Origin: Escherichia coli
Lineage (GTDB): Bacteria; Pseudomonadota; Gammaproteobacteria; Enterobacterales; Enterobacteriaceae
DNA: 64,000 nt
Strand: one strand, 5' to 3'
Assembly: GCF_003334785.1 (NCBI RefSeq)
Contig: NZ_QOWV01000002.1
Made by a program: the position numbers and the translations under genes
Shown: piece after piece, positions 23,070 to 48,932 of the stretch
How the letters are laid out: each line of letters starts with the position of its first letter
How positions within the stretch are numbered: position 1 is the stretch's first letter
The notes under the pieces: model-generated
Told to the model about the DNA's origin: nothing
What the model saw: only the letters and a program-made list of their open reading frames with translations
The model's database searches: none

Positions 23070-25269
<2,200 letters not shown>

Positions 25270-25761: not shown

Positions 25762-26046
25762 ATGAAACGCAAGATTATTGTCGCTTGCGGAGGCGCGGTT
25801 GCGACCTCTACGATGGCGGCGGAAGAAATTAAAGAGTTGTGTCAGAATCATAATATTCCTGTTGAATTAATCCAGTGTCGGGTTAATGAAATAGAAACCT
25901 ATATGGATGGTGTGCATTTGATATGCACCACTGCCAAAGTGGATCGTAGTTTTGGCGATATTCCGTTAGTTCACGGCATGCCTTTTATTTCTGGTATCGG
26001 TATCGAAGCATTACAAAATAAAATTCTGACTATCTTACAGGGGTGA
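25762..26046 (+). CDS. gatB: galactitol PTS EIIB component
   Basis: 94 aa, [27 protein letters not shown] with active-site Cys near the N-terminus. Confidence 0.85.
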
Positions 26047-31234: not shown

Positions 31235-31261
31235 AAAAAATAAGCCCGTGTAAGGGAGATT
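31235..31261. repeat. attL core (27 bp)
   Basis: AAAAAATAAGCCCGTGTAAGGGAGATT, identical to 61589-61615. Confidence 0.85.
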
Positions 31262-31340
31262 TAGGGTGTCACCAGTAGGGGCTTTCAACGGTACAATGCG
31301 GGTTTGAGCGGCATAAATTACCACTGAAAGCCCTTAAACG

Positions 31341-32354
31341 TTACTCTACTGTGGACACTGTGTGGACACTCTCGGCCTCAGTACCACCTCTTAGCGGATT
31401 AAGAGAAATGGCGTCCTGAAGGTACTCTGGCGCAAAATGAGCGTAAACCATAGTTTGCTCAATCCGCGTGTGACCTAGTATCCGTTGTAGCGTGATAATA
31501 CTTCCTCCATTAATCATGAAATGAGTGGCAAAGCTGTGCCTTAGTGCATGTGTGGCTTGCCCCATTGGCAAATCCGGTTTTATTGCTTTCATTGTTCGTC
31601 TGAAGCGAGGGTAATCAGCATCAGGGAATAAAAAACCTCGTTTGTTATCCGCGATCATTTTGGCAACAGCCTCTGAGATCGGGACGGTGCGTGGTTTGTT
31701 TGTTTTCGTTTTAACAAACGTGACGCGGTTATGGATGATATTTTCTGCTTTCAAACGAGCTGCTTCTCCCCAACGTGCTCCAGTACTCAGGCAAAGAATC
31801 GCAATCTTTTTGTTGTCGCCGTCAAGAGCAGCAAGCAGTAAGGCAATTTCTTCCTGCGTGAGATAGCCTGTGTCTGGTTTTTCCTCCTTAAGCCTTTTTG
31901 TCCCTCTGATAGGGTGCTCACCAAAGAATAACTCCGCTTCAATCAGGGCTGTAAACATGCCGCTAATACATGTTAAATCACGATTGATACTCGAAGGTTT
32001 AATACCCTGACTTCTTCGGGTGGCGCAGTACTGGCTGATAAGCGATTTCGTAATTTGAAATGCGCATGGGTCATTCGTTATTTTTGTGAAGATTTCAATT
32101 TTTCCAAGATTAGATTTCCCATGCTCTTCGTGTTTACCCTTTAAATCCCACCAGATCTGTGTCAGCTCCGACAGACGTCGCTTGTCTGTTGGTTTTGATA
32201 GCCATTCTTTATTGTGGTGGTTGTACAACGTGTATTTCTCGAAAGCGACAGCTTCGCTTTTCTTATCAAACTTCCTACGGATGCGTTTTCCATTACGTCC
32301 AGTAGGGCGGATGTCCACTTCATATCGACCATCATCGAGTTTTTTGATTGCCAT
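31341..32354 (-). CDS. int: phage P2-type tyrosine integrase
   Basis: 337 aa, MAIKKLDDGRYEVDIRPTGRNGKRIRRKFDKKSEAVAFEKYTLYNHH..., C-terminal catalytic HxxR...Y region. Confidence 0.95.
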   Translation of the reverse strand: MAIKKLDDGRYEVDIRPTGRNGKRIRRKFDKKSEAVAFEKYTLYNHHNKEWLSKPTDKRRLSELTQIWWDLKGKHEEHGKSNLGKIEIFTKITNDPCAFQITKSLISQYCATRRSQGIKPSSINRDLTCISGMFTALIEAELFFGEHPIRGTKRLKEEKPDTGYLTQEEIALLLAALDGDNKKIAILCLSTGARWGEAARLKAENIIHNRVTFVKTKTNKPRTVPISEAVAKMIADNKRGFLFPDADYPRFRRTMKAIKPDLPMGQATHALRHSFATHFMINGGSIITLQRILGHTRIEQTMVYAHFAPEYLQDAISLNPLRGGTEAESVHTVSTVE

Positions 32355-32469
32355 CAGAAAACCCTCCGAGTGGTGTGTTTTTTTGCGACTACTAATCGCT
32401 TTTTTCGTGGTGGCTGAAATTTAGCCACCAATAGTAGGCACTTGTGATGAATATATTCACGATGAATTG

Positions 32470-32769
32470 TTAACCAGTCTTTTGACCGGAGTGGGGCGAC
32501 GTTGTTTCGTTTTGCCCAAAGTGTGCGAGAGCGGGCGCAATTTGCCCGGACTCAGGAGCGATCTGATTGGTCATGAACCATAAAGTGTATTTGGTGAATT
32601 GTGGGGTCTGCAGGATGTTCATCATGACATCTGTTGGAGGTGTTGAACGACCACTTTCATAGTAACTCAGCGTGCCATACGGAACCCCTGTTAAATCAGC
32701 AAGTTGTTGTCTGCTCAAATACTCTGATTTTCGCATTAAGACTATCTTCTCGCTTATCGTGTTTGACAT
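32470..32769 (-). CDS. C: P2 immunity repressor C
   Basis: 99 aa, HTH-containing (LSRQQLADLTGVPYGTLSYYESGRSTP); divergent from cox. Confidence 0.85.
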   Translation of the reverse strand: MSNTISEKIVLMRKSEYLSRQQLADLTGVPYGTLSYYESGRSTPPTDVMMNILQTPQFTKYTLWFMTNQIAPESGQIAPALAHFGQNETTSPHSGQKTG

Positions 32770-32883
32770 GGTGTTTAGATCTCAATAGTATTTAGTTTAG
32801 ATGTAGATTGTTTAGTGCTTGGATGTGGGCACTAAAAGGCATTATAAGACATTAAACGCAATTCATGAGGGCTAGAGGACGAC
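32770..32883. promoter_or_regulatory. C/cox divergent promoter-operator switch region
   Basis: Intergenic region between the divergent C and cox genes with direct repeats TTTAGAT at 32774-32780 and 32796-32802 plus further TTTAGT copies. Confidence 0.5.
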
Positions 32884-33030
32884 ATGAGCAAGCAAGTAAC
32901 ACTCATGACTGATGCGATTCCTTATCAGGAGTTCGCAAAACTAATAGGAAAATCGACATGAAGTGGTTTACTGAATTTGGCCACCTGAACAGAGGTGATA
33001 TGCTCACCTCAGAACAACACAGGTGCCATA

Positions 33031-34178
<1,148 letters not shown>

Positions 34179-34398
34179 CTCGGTGGCCAGTTTTTGTTGA
34201 CCACTTCAACAGGAGCGGTTCGTCGGATGATCGATAAAGGAAAGCTGCCTGTAATTGATATGACCGATCCACAATCAGCTTCAGGTCGTGCAGGTGAATA
34301 TTGGGTATACCTTCCGGCATGGAATAACGGACTAAAACTGGCTTATGAAAGCCGCCCTAAAGAGATTCGTGACGGCTGGTTGATGTGGTTAGGTCTCG

Positions 34399-34593
34399 GT
34401 GAACCACGTTAAGGAGAACCGTATGAATGAGCCTCGTTGTATTGCTCAGTTACTGCGTAACGAAAGCCCCAGGGCGATTGACTTCACCATCACCCACGGT
34501 AAGGGGCGTAAGGGAATCATTATCCGCACCAAAAAACAGAGTCCGTTAAAAAAGGCTCTGACCTTTCTGAAAAGCCGGAGGGTATGGAAATGA
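34399..34593 (+). CDS. small hypothetical ORF between cox and B (P2 orf78 position)
   Basis: 64-aa ORF overlapping the cox 3' end and the B start; no independent support. Confidence 0.3.
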   Translation: MNHVKENRMNEPRCIAQLLRNESPRAIDFTITHGKGRKGIIIRTKKQSPLKKALTFLKSRRVWK

Positions 34594-35090
34594 CAGTGAT
34601 GACGCTCAATCTCGTTGAAAAACAGCCAGCAGCTATGCGCCGGATAATTGGTAAGCATCTTGCCGTTCCTCGCTGGCAGGATACATGTGATTATTATAAT
34701 CAGATGATGGAGCGCGAACGGTTAACGGTTTGCTTCCATGCTCAGTTAAAACAGCGTCACGCAACGATGTGTTTTGAAGAAATGAACGACGTCGAACGTG
34801 AACGACTGGTATGTGCAATTGATGAATTGCGTGGGGCATTCTCAAAACGCCGTCAGGTTGGCGCAAGTGAGTATGCATATATTAGTTTTTTAACAGTCAG
34901 TCAGCGTCGTACTTTATTTATGCATGCCGGATTGACTGAAAAAGAATTCAACCAGCCATACTGGCGAATTAATGAAGAATCATGTTACTGGCGTGATGCT
35001 TTATTCCGTGCATTACGTGAATTATTCAGCCTGTTTGAGTATGCACCGACAATTCTGACGTCGGTAAAACCAGAGCAATATCTGCATTAA
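34584..35090 (+). CDS. B: P2 replication gene B protein (helicase-loader-like)
   Basis: ~166 aa ORF at the position of P2 B between cox and A. Confidence 0.75.
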   Translation: MEMTVMTLNLVEKQPAAMRRIIGKHLAVPRWQDTCDYYNQMMERERLTVCFHAQLKQRHATMCFEEMNDVERERLVCAIDELRGAFSKRRQVGASEYAYISFLTVSQRRTLFMHAGLTEKEFNQPYWRINEESCYWRDALFRALRELFSLFEYAPTILTSVKPEQYLH

Positions 35091-35153
35091 GTAATTAACC
35101 AGAGTTTTTAACGCACTTAATCGTGCGGGGCTTCTTTTTGCCTGGAGAAAGTC

Positions 35154-35378
35154 ATGCATACAGTTTCTGAAAATCAGTGCGGTAAATTCGCATTACTGCT
35201 GCAACAGGCCAGAACCGAAGCACAGGCCGACGCTGCGACGCGCTTTTCTTCTCATCTTGACGCCATGATTCGCCACATCACAAAGGCGGAGTTATCCCGA
35301 GTGGAGATAGTCGAGCTGCTCAGTCAGGAGTCGGAAAAATTTCACAATATCGGATTGTCTCGCGGGGAGGTGCTTTGA
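35154..35378 (+). CDS. hypothetical early protein (P2 orf80 position)
   Basis: 74-aa ORF in the early operon. Confidence 0.5.
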
Positions 35379-35680
35379 TGTCCTGTTCTCATTCAGTTGT
35401 ATTACTGAATAACGCCTTAAAAATCGCCGTTATGGAAAATGGCGATTTGTCTCTTATTCAACTTTGTCTTGATAAAGAAAAACGCGACATCACTGAATCT
35501 GTTATCGCGATTTATCAGAATGAATTAAACCTCCTGTCTGATGTGGTCAATTTACTTGTTAAACGCGCTGTATTCCACAAGCAAATTTCCTCCGTGGATG
35601 AACTGACAAAATTAACGACAGAACTTGCCAGTTATTGCGCTGATGTATCCAGGAAACTTAACGATAAAAGGAGCTGGTAA
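35375..35680 (+). CDS. hypothetical early protein (P2 orf81 position)
   Basis: 101-aa ORF, start overlaps the previous stop. Confidence 0.5.
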
Positions 35681-35904
35681 TGCCGGACAACGTAGATTTT
35701 ATTCAGGAACAACAGGCTGAATTACTGGAGCGCCAGATTAACGCGGCAAGGGTAAAACATTGCGGTGCTTCTGCGCTGGTTTGCGAAGAGTGTGACGCGC
35801 CAATACCTGCTGCCCGTCGTGCGGCTTACCCGTCAGCCACGCGTTGTGTTTCCTGTCAGTCAGTCTTTGAAGCAAAAAACAAACATTACCGGAGAACGGC
35901 ATGA
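35680..35904 (+). CDS. DksA/TraR-family C4 zinc-finger protein (P2 orf82 position)
   Basis: CEECDAPIPAARRAAYPSATRCVSCQ four-Cys motif. Confidence 0.6.
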   Translation: MPDNVDFIQEQQAELLERQINAARVKHCGASALVCEECDAPIPAARRAAYPSATRCVSCQSVFEAKNKHYRRTA

Positions 35905-36176
35905 GTATTCGTATTGAAATTGGCGAACGTTATGTCGTTACCAGTGACAGCTTTCAGTTTATTCTCCACGAGAAAAAGAGAGCGGAAAGCGGTAAAAACG
36001 CCGGTCAGGAATGGCTGGCGGTGGTTGGTTATTACCCGAAATTAAGCCAGCTCGTTTCCGGCCTGATGCATCACGATATTCTGACCGGAAGCGCAAAGTC
36101 TTTTGCTGATTTAAACGCGCAGGTTGAGCAACTCAGCAAGCGTTGTTCAGAGGCTTTTGGCTCATATGGCCGTTAA
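35901..36176 (+). CDS. hypothetical early protein (P2 orf83 position)
   Basis: 91-aa ORF overlapping the A start. Confidence 0.5.
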   Translation: MSIRIEIGERYVVTSDSFQFILHEKKRAESGKNAGQEWLAVVGYYPKLSQLVSGLMHHDILTGSAKSFADLNAQVEQLSKRCSEAFGSYGR

Positions 36177-38451
36177 AGCCTCCGGGCGTTTTGTCCCTCC
36201 GTCAGCATTTGCTGCAGGCACCGGTAAGGCGTTTACCGGTGCTTATGCATGGAACGCGCCACGCGAGGCTGTCGGGCGCGAAAGACCCCTTACACGTGAC
36301 GAGATGCGTCAGGTGCAAGGTGTTTTATCCACGATTAACCGCCTGCCTTACTTTTTGCGCTCGCTGTTTACGTCACGCTATGACTACATCCGGCGCAATA
36401 AAAGCCCGGTGCACGGGTTTTATTTCCTCACATCCACTTTTCAGCGTCGTTTATGGCCGCGCATTGAGCGTGTGAATCAGCGCCATGAAATGAACACCGA
36501 CGCGTCGAAGCTGTTTCTGGCTGAGCGTGACCACTATGCGCGCCTGCCGGGAATGAATGACAAGGAGCTGAAAAAGTTTGCCGCCCGTATCTCATCGCAG
36601 CTTTTCATGATGTATGAGGAACTCAGCGATGCCTGGGTGGATGCGCATGGCGAGAAAGAATCGCTGTTTACGGATGAGGCGCAGGCTCACCTCTATGGTC
36701 ATGTTGCTGGCGCTGCACGTGCTTTCAATATTTCCCCGCTTTACTGGAAAAAATACCGTAAAGGACAGATGACCACGAGGCAGGCATATTCTGCAATTGC
36801 CCGTCTGTTTAACGATGAGTGGTGGACTCATCAGCTTAAAGGCCAGCGTATGCGCTGGCATGAAGCGTTACTGATAGCTGTCGGGGAGGTCAATAAAGAC
36901 CGTTCTCCTTATGCCAGTAAACACGCCATTCGTGATGTGCGTGCGCGCCGCCAGGCAAATCTGGAATTTCTTAAATCGTGTGACCTTGAAAACAGGGAAA
37001 CCGGCGAGCGCATCGACCTTATCAGTAAGGTGATGGGCAGTATTTCTAATCCTGAAATTCGCCGGATGGAGCTGATGAACACCATTGCCGGTATTGAGCG
37101 TTACGCCGCCGCAGAGGGTGATGTGGGGATGTTTATCACGCTGACCGCGCCGTCAAAGTATCACCCGACACGTCAGGTCAGAAAAGGCGAAAGTAAAACC
37201 GTTCAGCTAAATTACGGCTGGAACGATGAGGCATTTAATCCAAAGGATGCGCAGCGTTATCTCTGCCGTATCTGGAGCCTGATGCGCACGGCATTCAAGG
37301 ATAATGACTTACAGGTCTACGGTTTGCGTGTCGTCGAGCCACACCACGACGGAACGCCGCACTGGCATATGATGCTTTTTTGTAATCCACGCCAGCGTAA
37401 CCAGATTATTGAAATCATGCGTCGCTACGCGCTCAAAGAGGATGGAGACGAAAGAGGAGCTGCGCGAAACCGTTTTCAGGCAAAACACCTTAACCGGGGC
37501 GGTGCTGCGGGGTATATCGCGAAATACATCTCAAAAAACATCGATGGCTATGCACTGGATGGTCAGCTCGATAACGACACCGGCAGGCCGCTGAAAGACA
37601 CAGCCGCGGCTGTTACCGCATGGGCGTCAACGTGGCGCATACCACAATTTAAAACGGTTGGCCTGCCGACAATGGGGGCTTACCGTGAACTACGCAAATT
37701 GCCCCGCGGCGTCAGCATTGCTGATGAGTTTGACGAGCGCGTCGAGGCTGCACGCGCCGCCGCAGACAGTGGTGATTTTGCGCTGTATATCAGCGCGCAG
37801 GGCGGGGCAAATGTCCCGCGCGATTGTCAGACTGTCAGGGTCGCCCGTAGTCCGTCGGATGACGTTAACGAGTACGAGGAAGAAGTCGAGAGAGTGGTCG
37901 GCATTTACGCGCCGCATCTCGGCGCGCGTCATATTCATATCACCAGAACGACGGACTGGCACATTGTGCCGAAAGTTCCGGTCGTTGAGCCTTTGACTTT
38001 AAAAAGCGGCATCGCCGCGCCTCGGAGTCCTGTCAATAACTGTGGAAAACTCACCGGTGGTGATACTTCGTTACCGGCTCCCACACCTTCTGAGCACGCC
38101 GCAGCAGTGCTTAATCTGGTTGATGACGGTGTTATCGAATGGAGTGACCCGGAGGTCGTGAGGGCGCTCAGAGGTGCATTAAAACACGGTCGGAGAACGC
38201 CAAGTCGTCAGCAAAGAAACGGAAGCCCGTTAAAACCACATGAAATTGCACCATCGGCCAGACTGACCCGGTCGGAAAGAATGCAAATTACCCGTATCCG
38301 CGTTGACCTTGCTCAGAACGGTATCAGGCCGCAGCGATGGGAGCTTGAGGCGCTGGCGCGTGGCGCGACCGTAAATTATGACGGGAAAAAATTCACGTAT
38401 CCGGTCGCTGATGAGTGGCCGGGATTCTCAACAGTAATGGAGTGGACATGA
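36166..38451 (+). CDS. A: P2 replication initiation protein A (rolling-circle nickase)
   Basis: 761 aa from ATG 36166, MAVKASGRFVPPSAFAAGTGKAFTGAYAW...; largest early-operon ORF. Confidence 0.9.
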   Translation: MAVKASGRFVPPSAFAAGTGKAFTGAYAWNAPREAVGRERPLTRDEMRQVQGVLSTINRLPYFLRSLFTSRYDYIRRNKSPVHGFYFLTSTFQRRLWPRIERVNQRHEMNTDASKLFLAERDHYARLPGMNDKELKKFAARISSQLFMMYEELSDAWVDAHGEKESLFTDEAQAHLYGHVAGAARAFNISPLYWKKYRKGQMTTRQAYSAIARLFNDEWWTHQLKGQRMRWHEALLIAVGEVNKDRSPYASKHAIRDVRARRQANLEFLKSCDLENRETGERIDLISKVMGSISNPEIRRMELMNTIAGIERYAAAEGDVGMFITLTAPSKYHPTRQVRKGESKTVQLNYGWNDEAFNPKDAQRYLCRIWSLMRTAFKDNDLQVYGLRVVEPHHDGTPHWHMMLFCNPRQRNQIIEIMRRYALKEDGDERGAARNRFQAKHLNRGGAAGYIAKYISKNIDGYALDGQLDNDTGRPLKDTAAAVTAWASTWRIPQFKTVGLPTMGAYRELRKLPRGVSIADEFDERVEAARAAADSGDFALYISAQGGANVPRDCQTVRVARSPSDDVNEYEEEVERVVGIYAPHLGARHIHITRTTDWHIVPKVPVVEPLTLKSGIAAPRSPVNNCGKLTGGDTSLPAPTPSEHAAAVLNLVDDGVIEWSDPEVVRALRGALKHGRRTPSRQQRNGSPLKPHEIAPSARLTRSERMQITRIRVDLAQNGIRPQRWELEALARGATVNYDGKKFTYPVADEWPGFSTVMEWT

Positions 38452-38815: not shown

Positions 38816-39577
38816 TCAATTGAGTATCGATTTTCGTTCGAATATAACCATAACGCCAAGCGTCAAATGTAAGTCATCTATATGTGATTCGTATTCATAT
38901 TGGTCAGCATCAGGAGGTAGTAAATGCTCTGCTGCTGTAAAAACATCAATTGTAACAGATATATCGTCTGGAATTTCTTCATTTAATTCGGATATGTATT
39001 TTTTATATTTGTTTTTTAATTTCCTTATCATGTCTTCCTTATGGTGGATTGTAGTGCAGTAATTTTTTTTAGTTGAATCATTGTATGAATGGAATGAACA
39101 GTTTAATGCTAGGCCAAGACTTGAATTTCCTGTAGGGCCTGTGTGTTTAAAGTATTCAAGATTTCTTCTTATGTCAGAAAATAAAAGACTTTTACAGGGG
39201 GCATTTCCTTTAACTTCTATTGCACATATTGGAATGTCGAAAAATGGTCTGCTGTCCAATATGGCAATATCAATTCTGCCTGATCTTGTTGTGTTTGTGT
39301 TTTTTCTGACAGTTTTTTTTGAGAATGTTTTTTGGGGGTCAGACCGTTTCGATAAAGGAACTGTTGCATTAATGAATTTATTTGTATGGTACTCAAATAT
39401 AACTTTGTAATCACCATGGCGAAAAGATTTTATTTCTAACAACGATAGACCTATAGATACGGTAGCTACATATTCAGTGTTTATTTTTGCACCAGACCTG
39501 AAATCCATTAAATAAGTTGCGTCGGCTGACTTTTTCATTCCATCTTTTACAGCTTTCACAATATCCATGTTATTCAT
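38816..39577 (-). CDS. tin: Tin-like protein (P2 T-even phage exclusion)
   Basis: 253-aa ORF in AT-rich DNA immediately downstream of old on the same strand, the position and size of P2 tin. Confidence 0.7.
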   Translation of the reverse strand: MNNMDIVKAVKDGMKKSADATYLMDFRSGAKINTEYVATVSIGLSLLEIKSFRHGDYKVIFEYHTNKFINATVPLSKRSDPQKTFSKKTVRKNTNTTRSGRIDIAILDSRPFFDIPICAIEVKGNAPCKSLLFSDIRRNLEYFKHTGPTGNSSLGLALNCSFHSYNDSTKKNYCTTIHHKEDMIRKLKNKYKKYISELNEEIPDDISVTIDVFTAAEHLLPPDADQYEYESHIDDLHLTLGVMVIFERKSILN

Positions 39578-39751: not shown

Positions 39752-41512
39752 TTAAATCCATTTTATGAAATCTTCCATTTCATCATATTTTTTTATTACT
39801 GCTCTAACATCTTTGCTTTCATCACATAAACAATCTAAAAGACTATCCCATTCAGTTTGTTTTTTACCAAATCCATAAACAGCCTCTATATCACCGGATT
39901 TCCATATATAGATTCCGTTATCTTTCAATTTTTGATGTATTTCATGTATATGCTTTTGTGTTTTTTCATGGTTACATATTTTGATGAAGTCTTTGCTTGA
40001 AATGCTTTTGAATGACTCAAAAGTAGTAACTTTTGTATTTAAACTAAGCTCTCCTGAGTTGATTGATTCAATCAAAGCAGTCAATAGATTATCACATTCA
40101 GTACTAAGTAAGTCTTTATGCTCTGTTAATAGAATATTTGATAAGAAATCACAATCAGCTAGAATCCTTGTTTTTATGCCGATGGCATTGATGATTTGTG
40201 ACATCTTAAATAAACTACCCTTACCGTCAACGGCAACAATGCAGATTTTACTCGGGTTGAGTTCATGTCCGTTAATTTTTTTATAAAGTGCATATAGAAC
40301 GTTTGTCTCTGTTTTCCCTTCAACAAGCAAAACTTCTTCAGAAAATAAAAGGTATGATGAATTAGAAAGCGTGAATGCTGAGTGCAATTGCGGTGATGAA
40401 GATTTATATAATTCTTCGATTTTTTCAGATATAGTCTTCCTTGCTATGGTTCCATTAGAATCCTTACAAACCTGAATCGCATTTGCTGCATGCTTTGCAG
40501 AAAGCATACTGGCTGAGTGAGTTGATATTATAACCTGATACCCTGATTCACTTAATGTGACAAGTGATTCTCTGACAGAATTAATGGCTGAAGGGTGTAA
40601 ATATAACTCAGGTTCATCAATGAAAATCAAAGTGTTTGATTTTTTTGATTCGCTGTTTTCTTTTTTTATTTCGGCCAGGTATTGAATTAATGCCATTTGA
40701 ATGGAACGTTGTGTTCCGTGACCAAATCGGCTGATATCTCTCATTACCGGTTCATCTTCCCGAGACTCAAAAACTTTCAGAGTGCCGGATTTAAATATCT
40801 CATCTAATGTCGGTGTGGGAAAGTGTAACTTTACACTTACGTCGGGAAAAAATTGGTTTACTTTTTTATTTACGCCTGAGTCTATTTTATTAAGGCTTTC
40901 TAATCTGTTCTCACCGTTGTGAGAAAGATATTTACCTATTTCTGATATGTTTTTTGAAAATTTTTCTTCGTGTTCTTGTTTTATTTCAGAAACAATTGCG
41001 GAAAGTATCTTTCCTATTGTGGTCGTGTTTTTGCATTTTGTTGAGTCTTCGACAGCGTCAGACATTGCAGGGATATGAATTGGTTCCGGAAATATATTGG
41101 AGATTGCACCATCTATGCCGCCAGGGTTTTTCTTCCACGTGGTACCGTCATATACATCCAGACTTTTTTTGGCTTTTCCTGTTTCCTTATTAAATTCCTG
41201 TCTTCTTGCAAAGGTAAGAGTCCCGTCAATTATAAACGGAGCTATTTTTTGTTGATTCTCTTCTGTTAACAAAGACAGAGTATCATCTGTTATACCTTGA
41301 ATAACGCCTTCAACGGATACGGGGTGTGTAGGATCGTACACATCTGATTCTGAAATCAAAGAGCCATCTAACAGCCACTTAATTGCTAAGATAATATTTG
41401 ATTTTCCTGCGTTATTATAACCAACTAAAGCAGTGAAGGGGCGCAAAATAGCCGATGTTGACTTACAAGAACGAAAGTTGCTAATTGAAACTGAAGCAAG
41501 ACGTACAGTCAT
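39752..41512 (-). CDS. old: OLD-family nuclease (ABC-type ATPase plus Toprim domain)
   Basis: 586 aa; Walker A GYNNAGKSN, Walker B LIFIDEPELYLHP, C-terminal Toprim-like LLVEGKTE...AVDGKGS...ADCDF; AT-rich. Confidence 0.9.
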   Translation of the reverse strand: MTVRLASVSISNFRSCKSTSAILRPFTALVGYNNAGKSNIILAIKWLLDGSLISESDVYDPTHPVSVEGVIQGITDDTLSLLTEENQQKIAPFIIDGTLTFARRQEFNKETGKAKKSLDVYDGTTWKKNPGGIDGAISNIFPEPIHIPAMSDAVEDSTKCKNTTTIGKILSAIVSEIKQEHEEKFSKNISEIGKYLSHNGENRLESLNKIDSGVNKKVNQFFPDVSVKLHFPTPTLDEIFKSGTLKVFESREDEPVMRDISRFGHGTQRSIQMALIQYLAEIKKENSESKKSNTLIFIDEPELYLHPSAINSVRESLVTLSESGYQVIISTHSASMLSAKHAANAIQVCKDSNGTIARKTISEKIEELYKSSSPQLHSAFTLSNSSYLLFSEEVLLVEGKTETNVLYALYKKINGHELNPSKICIVAVDGKGSLFKMSQIINAIGIKTRILADCDFLSNILLTEHKDLLSTECDNLLTALIESINSGELSLNTKVTTFESFKSISSKDFIKICNHEKTQKHIHEIHQKLKDNGIYIWKSGDIEAVYGFGKKQTEWDSLLDCLCDESKDVRAVIKKYDEMEDFIKWI

Positions 41513-47647: not shown

Positions 47648-48076
47648 GTGAGGGTGACCGGACTTATTGAATCGCTGTCACCGTCAGGGCGTCGGCGACT
47701 GAGCGCCGAACTGGCGAAACGTCTGCGGCAGAGTCAGCAGCGCCGGGTGATGGCACAGAAAGCCCCGGACGGCACACCCTACGCACCACGCCAGCAGCAG
47801 AGCGCCAGAAAAAAGACCGATCGCGTTAAGCGAAAAATGTTTGCGAAACTTATCACCAGTCGTTTTTTGCATATCCGCGCCAGCCCGGAACAGGCATCAA
47901 TGGAGTTTTTCGGCGGGAAGTCACCGAAAATCGCCAGCGTGCATCAGTTCGGTCTGTCGGAAGAAACCCGGAAAGACGGTAAGAAAATTGATTATCCGGC
48001 GCGTCCTCTGCTCGGCTTTACCGGTGAGGATGTGCAGATGATTGAAGAGATTATCCTGGCTCACCTTGAGCGTTAG
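47648..48076 (+). CDS. late morphogenesis protein; by position gpL (head completion), but the C-terminal HQFG...PARP motif resembles the gpS/virion-morphogenesis family
   Basis: 142-aa ORF starting at GTG 47648 with no ATG in frame upstream; identity as L versus S cannot be settled without a search. Confidence 0.55.
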   Translation: MRVTGLIESLSPSGRRRLSAELAKRLRQSQQRRVMAQKAPDGTPYAPRQQQSARKKTDRVKRKMFAKLITSRFLHIRASPEQASMEFFGGKSPKIASVHQFGLSEETRKDGKKIDYPARPLLGFTGEDVQMIEEIILAHLER

Positions 48077-48146: not shown

Positions 48147-48932
48147 TTATGAGTGGTTTTTATTTGATGCTTTGTATTCTAAAACCTTCTTATTGGCGTA
48201 AAAGAATTTTGTATATGACAGGAATATAAGCAGACCTGAAATGAAATAGATTAGGGATATTATTAATAATGTTTTTCTGTGGCTGTTATTATCTTTAATC
48301 TCCTGACTTAACCATTCGGAGTCCTCCTCGTTTAGCTGTAAGAGCTTATTGCAGGCGATCTCAGGAAGTGTGTCTTTTATAAATACGTTTTGCAGACTCT
48401 TGCAATCGGCAAGGCTATAAGTTTTATTAAATTCAACTGTTTTATTTTTGAAGGATAAAAGAACTTTGTCACTATAAACATAGTACATCATATTTTTATA
48501 TGGTATACCTATGGCATCCCTTACTATAGCGGATTGTTCATTGTGTATGTAACATGCGAAGATAATATAAAGAATTCCGGCCAGGACTGCACTCATTGTT
48601 TTTGTGATGCATGGCGGTTCTGTTATGTCTCCCCAGAAGCGAGTAAGGAAAAAATCCGATGTTTTTAGTTTTCCATCAATCAGCCCCTGCTGTATCATTC
48701 TCACATCTTCGATGCCTGATACATTGATTCCGTTAAGTGTTTTAAATAGTTGAATATCGCGCCACTCGCGGTCCAGTCTTTTTAATTTTTTGTCTGAATA
48801 TCCAAATTTGAAATAATGTGCAATAAGCCTCATAAGGTTACTTTTACCAAAGCTAAAAAATGCTAATACTGCAAAGACCAAAAGATACAAAACGATTAGC
48901 TCCCACACATTAGTCACATTATAGCTGACCAT
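48147..48932 (-). CDS. hypothetical membrane protein (261 aa, 3 predicted transmembrane helices), foreign AT-rich cargo of unknown function
   Basis: ORF with strong Shine-Dalgarno (AAGGAGAG 7 nt before ATG); hydrophobic segments WELIVLYLLVFAVLAFFSF, MSAVLAGILYIIFACYI, KTLLIISLIYFISGLLIFLSY; AT-rich codon usage unlike the flanking phage genes. Confidence 0.6.
   Translation of the reverse strand: MVSYNVTNVWELIVLYLLVFAVLAFFSFGKSNLMRLIAHYFKFGYSDKKLKRLDREWRDIQLFKTLNGINVSGIEDVRMIQQGLIDGKLKTSDFFLTRFWGDITEPPCITKTMSAVLAGILYIIFACYIHNEQSAIVRDAIGIPYKNMMYYVYSDKVLLSFKNKTVEFNKTYSLADCKSLQNVFIKDTLPEIACNKLLQLNEEDSEWLSQEIKDNNSHRKTLLIISLIYFISGLLIFLSYTKFFYANKKVLEYKASNKNHS

Follow-up and report, generated by a model that had tools for sequence, protein, structure and literature searches.

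The intergenic region between C and cox, at 32770-32883 of the 64,000-nucleotide stretch of Escherichia coli DNA analysed here (the window), is, to judge from its sequence, the lysis/lysogeny switch of phage P2 itself and not merely a P2-like one. We read it as an unchanged P2 switch inside a P2 prophage whose cox gene has been cut by a recent ISEc52 insertion, which would hold the switch in its C-on state, in a prophage that was most likely already dead; the probability that we attach to this joint reading is about 0.93. The switch is P2-type by descent, and it is without one of its two repressors, Cox. Every feature tested for membership in the P2 immunity type of C/Cox switches is present, a functional Cox excepted, and nothing in the analysis contradicts the identification.

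The region is the 114-bp gap that separates the C start codon (32769, minus strand) from the cox ATG (32884), and it lies inside a P2 prophage that spans 31235-61615 and is integrated between yegR and yegQ in the E. coli chromosome. Direct alignment of 32440-32958 (519 bp) with P2 (AF063097) gave 100% nucleotide identity, while blastn gave 99.5% over 31235-32961 and a megablast against phage records returned P2 and its closest relatives at 99.6%. The C gene, Pe, O1, O2, Pc, the cox boxes and cox codons 1-25 are base for base those of P2 (AF063097 / NC_001895), the difference from AF063097 being that cox is split here after codon 25 by ISEc52. The coordinates of O1, O2, Pe and Pc given in Table 1 were transferred from the experimentally derived annotation of AF063097. 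The repressor matches the 'C protein' of PDB 2XCJ/2L49 (the crystallised P2 C being 2XCJ) in 99/99 residues, and the leftward gene order, C and then int, is that of the Pc operon of P2.

The first-pass annotation had noticed TTTAGAT and TTTAGT motifs in an intact C-cox gap and had expected them to be read by an immunity repressor that binds direct repeats. Both points are borne out: TTTAGAT lies at 32774-32780 and 32796-32802, TTTAGT lies at 32791-32796 and 32811-32816, the region has 100% identity to P2, and P2 C is a repressor that reads direct repeats, with both C and O1/O2 unchanged here. In P2, the operator consists of 8-bp non-palindromic direct repeats, 22 bp apart centre to centre, which span the Pe -10 and are both required (PMC2995052, PMC1904263), and its linker has 14 bp, 11 AT and 3 GC (PMC2995052). 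The O1 and O2 of this prophage likewise lie 22 bp apart centre to centre, flank the Pe -10 and enclose a 14-bp linker of 11 AT and 3 GC, so that spacing and linker composition match the published description (PMC2995052) exactly. The comparison with the mapped P2 C operators, which the annotation had proposed, also went its way: the mapped half-sites, two copies of GTTTAGAT, contain TTTAGAT and are unchanged in this sequence. They make up two of the four TTTAG motifs, and the proposal of several operator repeats stands for these two copies of GTTTAGAT and falls for the two TTTAGT copies, which are neither annotated nor demonstrated as C sites. Given the 100% identity of protein and DNA to the characterised P2 components, C would be expected to bind O1/O2 and to repress Pe in this strain as well.

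Counting motifs could not have identified the operator. The window has 6 copies of TTTAGAT where 7.3 are expected and 14 of TTTAGWT where 14.1 are, and neither of these nor GTTTAGAT is over-represented in the window relative to shuffled sequence. When the region was shuffled, ~5% of the shuffles contained an exact 8-mer direct repeat within 40 bp, and of 561 real 114-bp windows 53 had one as well. The statistics alone are weak; the identity of the operator rests on the identity to P2 and on the P2 annotation.

The same region had been described as a divergent promoter-operator region, which is correct for the genes, as they diverge, but not for the promoters: the predicted Pe (32763-91, plus) and Pc (32841-66, minus) face each other inside the ~110-bp C-cox gap, and in P2 the two are convergent, with transcripts that overlap by ~35 nt (PMC1904263, PMC2995052, PMC3936717). 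Pe was also found independently by a promoter scan (TTGACA-17-TAGTAT, 10/12 matches). Pc was not called by the consensus promoter scan, and it has been described as a weak promoter (PMC1904263). No more than 14 nt separate the annotated Pc -10 and -35 hexamers (AF063097), a short spacer for a sigma-70 promoter; this spacing and the missed call may reflect a weak Pc, which fits the literature, or an annotated -35 that is imprecise. Over Pc lie three cox-box-like direct repeats, TAAAAGGCA, TATAAGACA and TTAAACGCA, which have 1, 2 and 0 mismatches to the consensus TTAAA(G/C)NC(A/C) and whose starts are 9-10 bp apart; this matches the cox boxes described for P2, which are placed over the Pc -10 and -35 with a periodicity of 10-11 bp (PMC3936717). 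A scan of the window with this consensus, allowing one mismatch, returned 141 hits against 104 expected, the motif being too degenerate to be useful anywhere but inside the switch. The gap also holds a perfect 8-bp inverted repeat, TTTAGTGC(N10)GCACTAAA, whose left arm contains the fourth of the TTTAG motifs (TTTAGT, 32811-32816). Its predicted hairpin (-11 kcal/mol, z = -2.9) would fall inside the ~35-nt overlap of the Pe and Pc transcripts; in folding of the two leaders, whole-leader z-scores were -1.4 and -2.2, and the hairpin at 32811-36 was modest. The P2 switch literature that we examined describes no role for this inverted repeat.

Table 1. Features of the switch, the interrupted cox gene and the surrounding prophage (coordinates in the window).
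Feature	Coordinates	Strand	Basis
attL core	31235-31261	.	blastn: 31235 = P2 24356, edge of annotated attP core; alignment diverges left of 31235
Cox-binding region of attL (P' side)	31278-31351	.	P2 annotation 24399-24472 'protein_bind Cox'; identical to P2
int, integrase, 337 aa, intact	31341-32354	-	ORF; 99.7% aa identity to P2 Int over 337/337 residues
C, immunity repressor, 99 aa, intact	32470-32769	-	100% aa and nt identity to P2 C
Pe -35 TTGACA, overlaps C start codon	32763-32768	+	P2 annotation 25884-25889; promoter scan
O1, C-repressor half-site GTTTAGAT	32773-32780	+	P2 annotation 25894-25901 'O1 repressor binding site'; 100% identical
Pe -10 TAGTAT, bracketed by O1 and O2	32786-32791	+	P2 annotation 25907-25912; promoter scan
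TTTAGT in O1-O2 spacer, abuts O2	32791-32796	+	sequence; no feature in P2 record
O2, C-repressor half-site GTTTAGAT	32795-32802	+	P2 annotation 25916-25923
Perfect 8-bp inverted repeat TTTAGTGC(N10)GCACTAAA	32811-32836	.	repeat search; identical in P2
Three cox-box-like direct repeats over Pc: TAAAAGGCA 32833-41, TATAAGACA 32843-51, TTAAACGCA 32852-60	32833-32860	+	consensus match
Pc -10 (TATAAT on minus strand)	32841-32846	-	P2 annotation 25962-25967
Pc -35 as annotated in P2	32861-32866	-	P2 annotation 25982-25987
cox 5' fragment, codons 1-25, translation MSKQVTLMTDAIPYQEFAKLIGKST then stop	32884-32958	+	100% identical to P2 Cox residues 1-25
ISEc52 (IS3 family, IS911-like), 1250 bp, complete, same orientation as cox	32959-34208	+	junctions compared with P2
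cox 3' fragment: duplicated codon 25 and codons 26-91, undecayed	34209-34412	+	tblastn against P2 Cox; blastn resumes at P2 26074
Rest of early operon: orf78, B, orf80-83, A	34423-38451	+	full-length tblastn matches, 88-100% identity, no stop codons
tin, anti-phage, intact	38819-39577	-	99.2% protein identity to P2
old, anti-phage, intact	39755-41512	-	100% protein identity to P2
H-like fibre	51509-52645	+	cassette 51337-54824
Tail-fibre assembly protein	52647-53087	+	cassette 51337-54824
Tail-fibre assembly protein, opposite orientation	53059-53661	-	cassette 51337-54824
Fibre tip	53661-54203	-	cassette 51337-54824
Serine DNA invertase	54225-54824	+	phrog_125, E = 1.5e-101
attR core	61589-61615	.	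blastn: 61615 = P2 24382, edge of annotated attP core

That cox is broken had also been recognised in the first reading of the sequence, and the nature of the lesion can now be given. A complete IS splits the frame after codon 25, where the first three bases of the element supply a TGA stop. Uninterrupted P2 reads AAATCGACAGGAGCG; here, AAATCGACA is followed by TGAAGTGG at the left junction, and CCACTTCA by ACAGGAGCG at the right one. The target duplication is a 3-bp ACA (32956-58 and 34209-11), and the terminal inverted repeats are 27 nt long and imperfect (TGAAGTGG at 32959-85, CCACTTCA at 34182-208). The orfA (33031-33333) and orfB (33360-34178) frames match NCBIfam transpos_IS3 (E = 3.8e-90), and the element is 99.5-99.8% identical to those annotated 'IS3-like element ISEc52 family transposase'; a length of ~1.25 kb, TG...CA inverted repeats, a 3-bp duplication and an orfA/orfB pair are the hallmarks of the IS3 family, and all of them are found. 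In tblastn, the mismatches of the cox 3' fragment to P2 Cox are confined to the alignment leader derived from the IS. The break falls inside the winged-helix DNA-binding half of Cox, next to T25, G26, R30 and D33. These residues were picked, with others, as likely to contact DNA in the winged helix-turn-helix, and when they are replaced by alanine, complementation of a cox3-defective prophage is highly decreased (PMC3936717). With its frame split, a functional 91-aa Cox is not encoded as the first gene of the Pe operon, and the cox boxes are present. The early-operon frames orf78, B, orf80-83 and A are intact and are now separated from Pe by the IS.

How would such a switch behave? By the mechanism established for P2, which the sequence identity extends to this prophage, C dimers on O1 and O2 would block Pe and keep cox, B and A off, and the weak opposing Pc would keep C and Int expressed. 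Normally, Cox would coat the cox boxes over Pc and flip the switch, and would also act as the excision directionality factor at attL; indeed, Cox represses P2 Pc via the cox boxes and is needed for excision, and cox-defective P2 prophages show no spontaneous phage release (PMC3936717). With ISEc52 in cox, no functional Cox would be made, and Pc would therefore be unrepressible and the prophage unable to excise, even though int and the Cox sites of attL are intact. Any transcript from Pe would reach B and A only after running through 1.25 kb of IS, and the prophage would be held in the C-on, immune state. We consider such a lock probable, and it is a reasonable expectation from the published cox-defective phenotypes. 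P2 lysogens are already very stable, so that in practice the loss of cox may add little to the bias towards lysogeny. Transcription from Pe could run on into B and A once Pe is derepressed, as no plus-strand intrinsic terminator was found inside the IS, and Cox could be provided in trans by another P2-type prophage outside the window. The classical P2 cox mutants, for example the cox3-defective prophage and the excision-deficient mutants cited in PMC3936717 (its reference 10), likewise represent the loss of Cox in an otherwise P2-immune lysogen, and the phenotype expected of them is no spontaneous phage release and no excision (PMC3936717). Unlike those mutants, this prophage carries a natural IS, has an additional 1.25 kb between Pe and the replication genes, and also suffers from a lysis and morphogenesis deletion.

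It is this deletion that makes the lock largely moot, because a prophage without L, X, Y, K, lysA, lysB, lysC and R would yield no virions and no lysis. P2 5950-8942 (~3 kb) is missing at the junction 47652-47657, which removes L, X, the holin Y, the endolysin K, lysA, lysB, lysC, R and the first 9 codons of S, and this renders cell lysis and head and tail completion impossible whatever the state of the switch. In a gene-by-gene comparison with P2, most of the other genes are intact at 82-100% amino acid identity. The same colinear deletion junction occurs at the yegR/yegQ site of E. coli IAL7250 (NZ_CM130729.1), in a more decayed P2 prophage with an intact cox. Because the deletion junction is found there together with an intact cox, the deletion is by parsimony probably older than the insertion into cox, and the prophage was most likely already dead through the ~3-kb deletion before the IS hit.

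The insertion itself looks recent and private. The exact cox::ISEc52 junction, for which the 29-mer TAGGAAAATCGACATGAAGTGGTTTACTG can serve as a tag, was found in 0 of 5,426 complete E. coli genomes and is also absent from the GTDB species representatives. The insertion is judged recent because both halves of cox are undecayed and the junction is private, and it follows from this that the intact state of the switch reflects how recently the IS struck and not any later preservation. The P2-type stretch from C through the switch to the 5' part of cox was found in 404 genomes at a coverage of at least 80%, and among the matches listed, every such stretch annotates a cox-family gene there. The backbone of E. 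coli LR-64-2 (NZ_AP027595.1) is 99.88% identical to the present one over 30.6 kb (2000-32599), shared from metG to yegR and including the yeh fimbrial, rcn, thiMD and gat operons, and in this strain the same site is occupied by a complete P2-like prophage whose cox is intact. The prophage of LR-64-2 is only ~98% identical to ours to the right of C, which suggests that the two strains harbour different or recombined phages in a near-identical chromosome.

Other readings of the switch have to be weighed against this one. The operator could be a four-site array in which all four TTTAG motifs bind C. The published DNase I footprint of P2 C, as described in PMC1904263, lends itself to this idea, as it comprises four short protected patches, namely O1, the spacer, O2 and a stretch ~12 nt downstream of O2, and the authors state that four C molecules may bind; moreover, four TTTAG motifs on one strand within 114 bp occur nowhere in the 64 kb except in the C-cox gap. 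However, only O1 and O2 are annotated and mapped as C sites, no sequence-specific site is described for the protected spacer patch (PMC1904263), and a structural model accounts for the four patches by two dimers, in each of which one monomer occupies an 8-bp repeat while its partner contacts the DNA alongside non-specifically (PMC2995052). Neither TTTAGT copy is in 11-bp phase with O1 and O2, their starts lying 18 bp after O1 and 15-16 bp after O2, and the downstream copy (32811-32816) reaches beyond the protection limit at ~+16 and is better explained as an arm of the inverted repeat. A four-site array is therefore unlikely in our view, and we retain the operator of two half-sites. A role for the TTTAGT copies as phased auxiliary half-sites was rejected because of their spacing, and genuine auxiliary contacts of any kind at these motifs are likewise unlikely. 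It is also conceivable that the switch is not locked at all and leaks, either via a truncated Cox (residues 24-91) or via read-through or an outward promoter borne by the IS that would express the early operon. A 72-aa ORF that starts with a TTG at 34194, in the right end of the IS, might in theory yield Cox residues 24-91; the IS points the same way as Pe, with no intrinsic terminator predicted on the plus strand; and TTGACC, an outward-facing -35-like hexamer, is present at the right end of the element. Nevertheless, the break costs the winged helix-turn-helix half of Cox its first 23-25 residues, and the residues at or beside the break are those whose replacement by alanine highly decreases activity (PMC3936717); TTGACC has no -10 partner at the right distance, and the promoter scan found no convincing sigma-70-like outward promoter at this end of the IS. 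Pe would be off anyway while C is present. An unlocked switch is thus extremely unlikely, and the C-on hold is the reading that we prefer.

One could also speculate that selection has kept the switch after the loss of cox, the host having domesticated the prophage for its immunity and for defence by old and tin. In line with this, none of C, int, old and tin is damaged, their identity to P2 being 99-100%, and the prophage has been grounded by two independent lesions. But too little time has elapsed for selection to be visible: the two halves of cox, which are certainly free of selection, are equally undecayed, the target duplication of the IS is still perfect, the junction is private to this strain among the genomes searched, and most structural genes are just as intact, although the loss of L through R has left them without use. 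We therefore regard domestication as very unlikely. Going further, IS insertion into cox might be a recurrent and selected route by which E. coli grounds its P2 prophages. If this were true, the loss of one protein would remove the anti-repressor and the excisionase together, P2 immunity, old and tin would be kept, and the response to Cox-dependent cross-talk with a satellite (P4) would be abolished. Such a route is very improbable on the present data; a neutral recent hit is far more likely, because the insertion is known here from a single sequence and struck a prophage that had probably died before.

The switches of WPhi, P2 Hy dis and 186 (CI/Apl) have promoters that point at each other, a repressor that recognises direct repeats, and a Cox or Apl protein that is also an excisionase (PMC1904263, PMC1904268, PMC7498355), an architecture that these heteroimmune phages have in common with the switch studied here. 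They differ in the sequences of their operators, in the spacing (2.5 or 3 turns) and in the position relative to Pe (PMC2995052), whereas the present switch is of exactly the P2 immunity type. The C/cox switch is already known and our analysis adds no new mechanism to it; 32770-32883 can confidently be annotated as the P2 Pe/Pc switch with its O1 and O2, and the prophage as defective, owing to cox::ISEc52 and to the deletion from L through R. It provides a clean and datable example of stepwise prophage decay, the deletion coming first and the IS second, in which the grounded prophage still carries two defence genes, old and tin. The strain should still be immune to superinfection by P2, and it should neither release phage nor serve as a helper for P4.

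The cryptic P2 remnant at yegQ-yegR of E. coli K-12 (ogrK, yegZ) occupies the same chromosomal attachment site. It is another P2 that has decayed in place, of which only ogr and a D fragment are kept; in contrast, the strain analysed here retains the greater part of its prophage and the switch in full. An ogrK gene adjoins yegQ in the related genomes.

Finally, two observations concern the rest of the prophage. Compared with P2 (AF063097), this prophage not only lacks L through R but also has H, G and fun(Z) replaced, at 51337-54824, by an apparent invertible tail-fibre cassette. The orf30 homologue (48150-48932) is intact and, at 87.7% amino acid identity, is among the most divergent of the P2 genes here, while its neighbours S, V and W are 97-100% identical; orf30 is absent from the prophage of LR-64-2.
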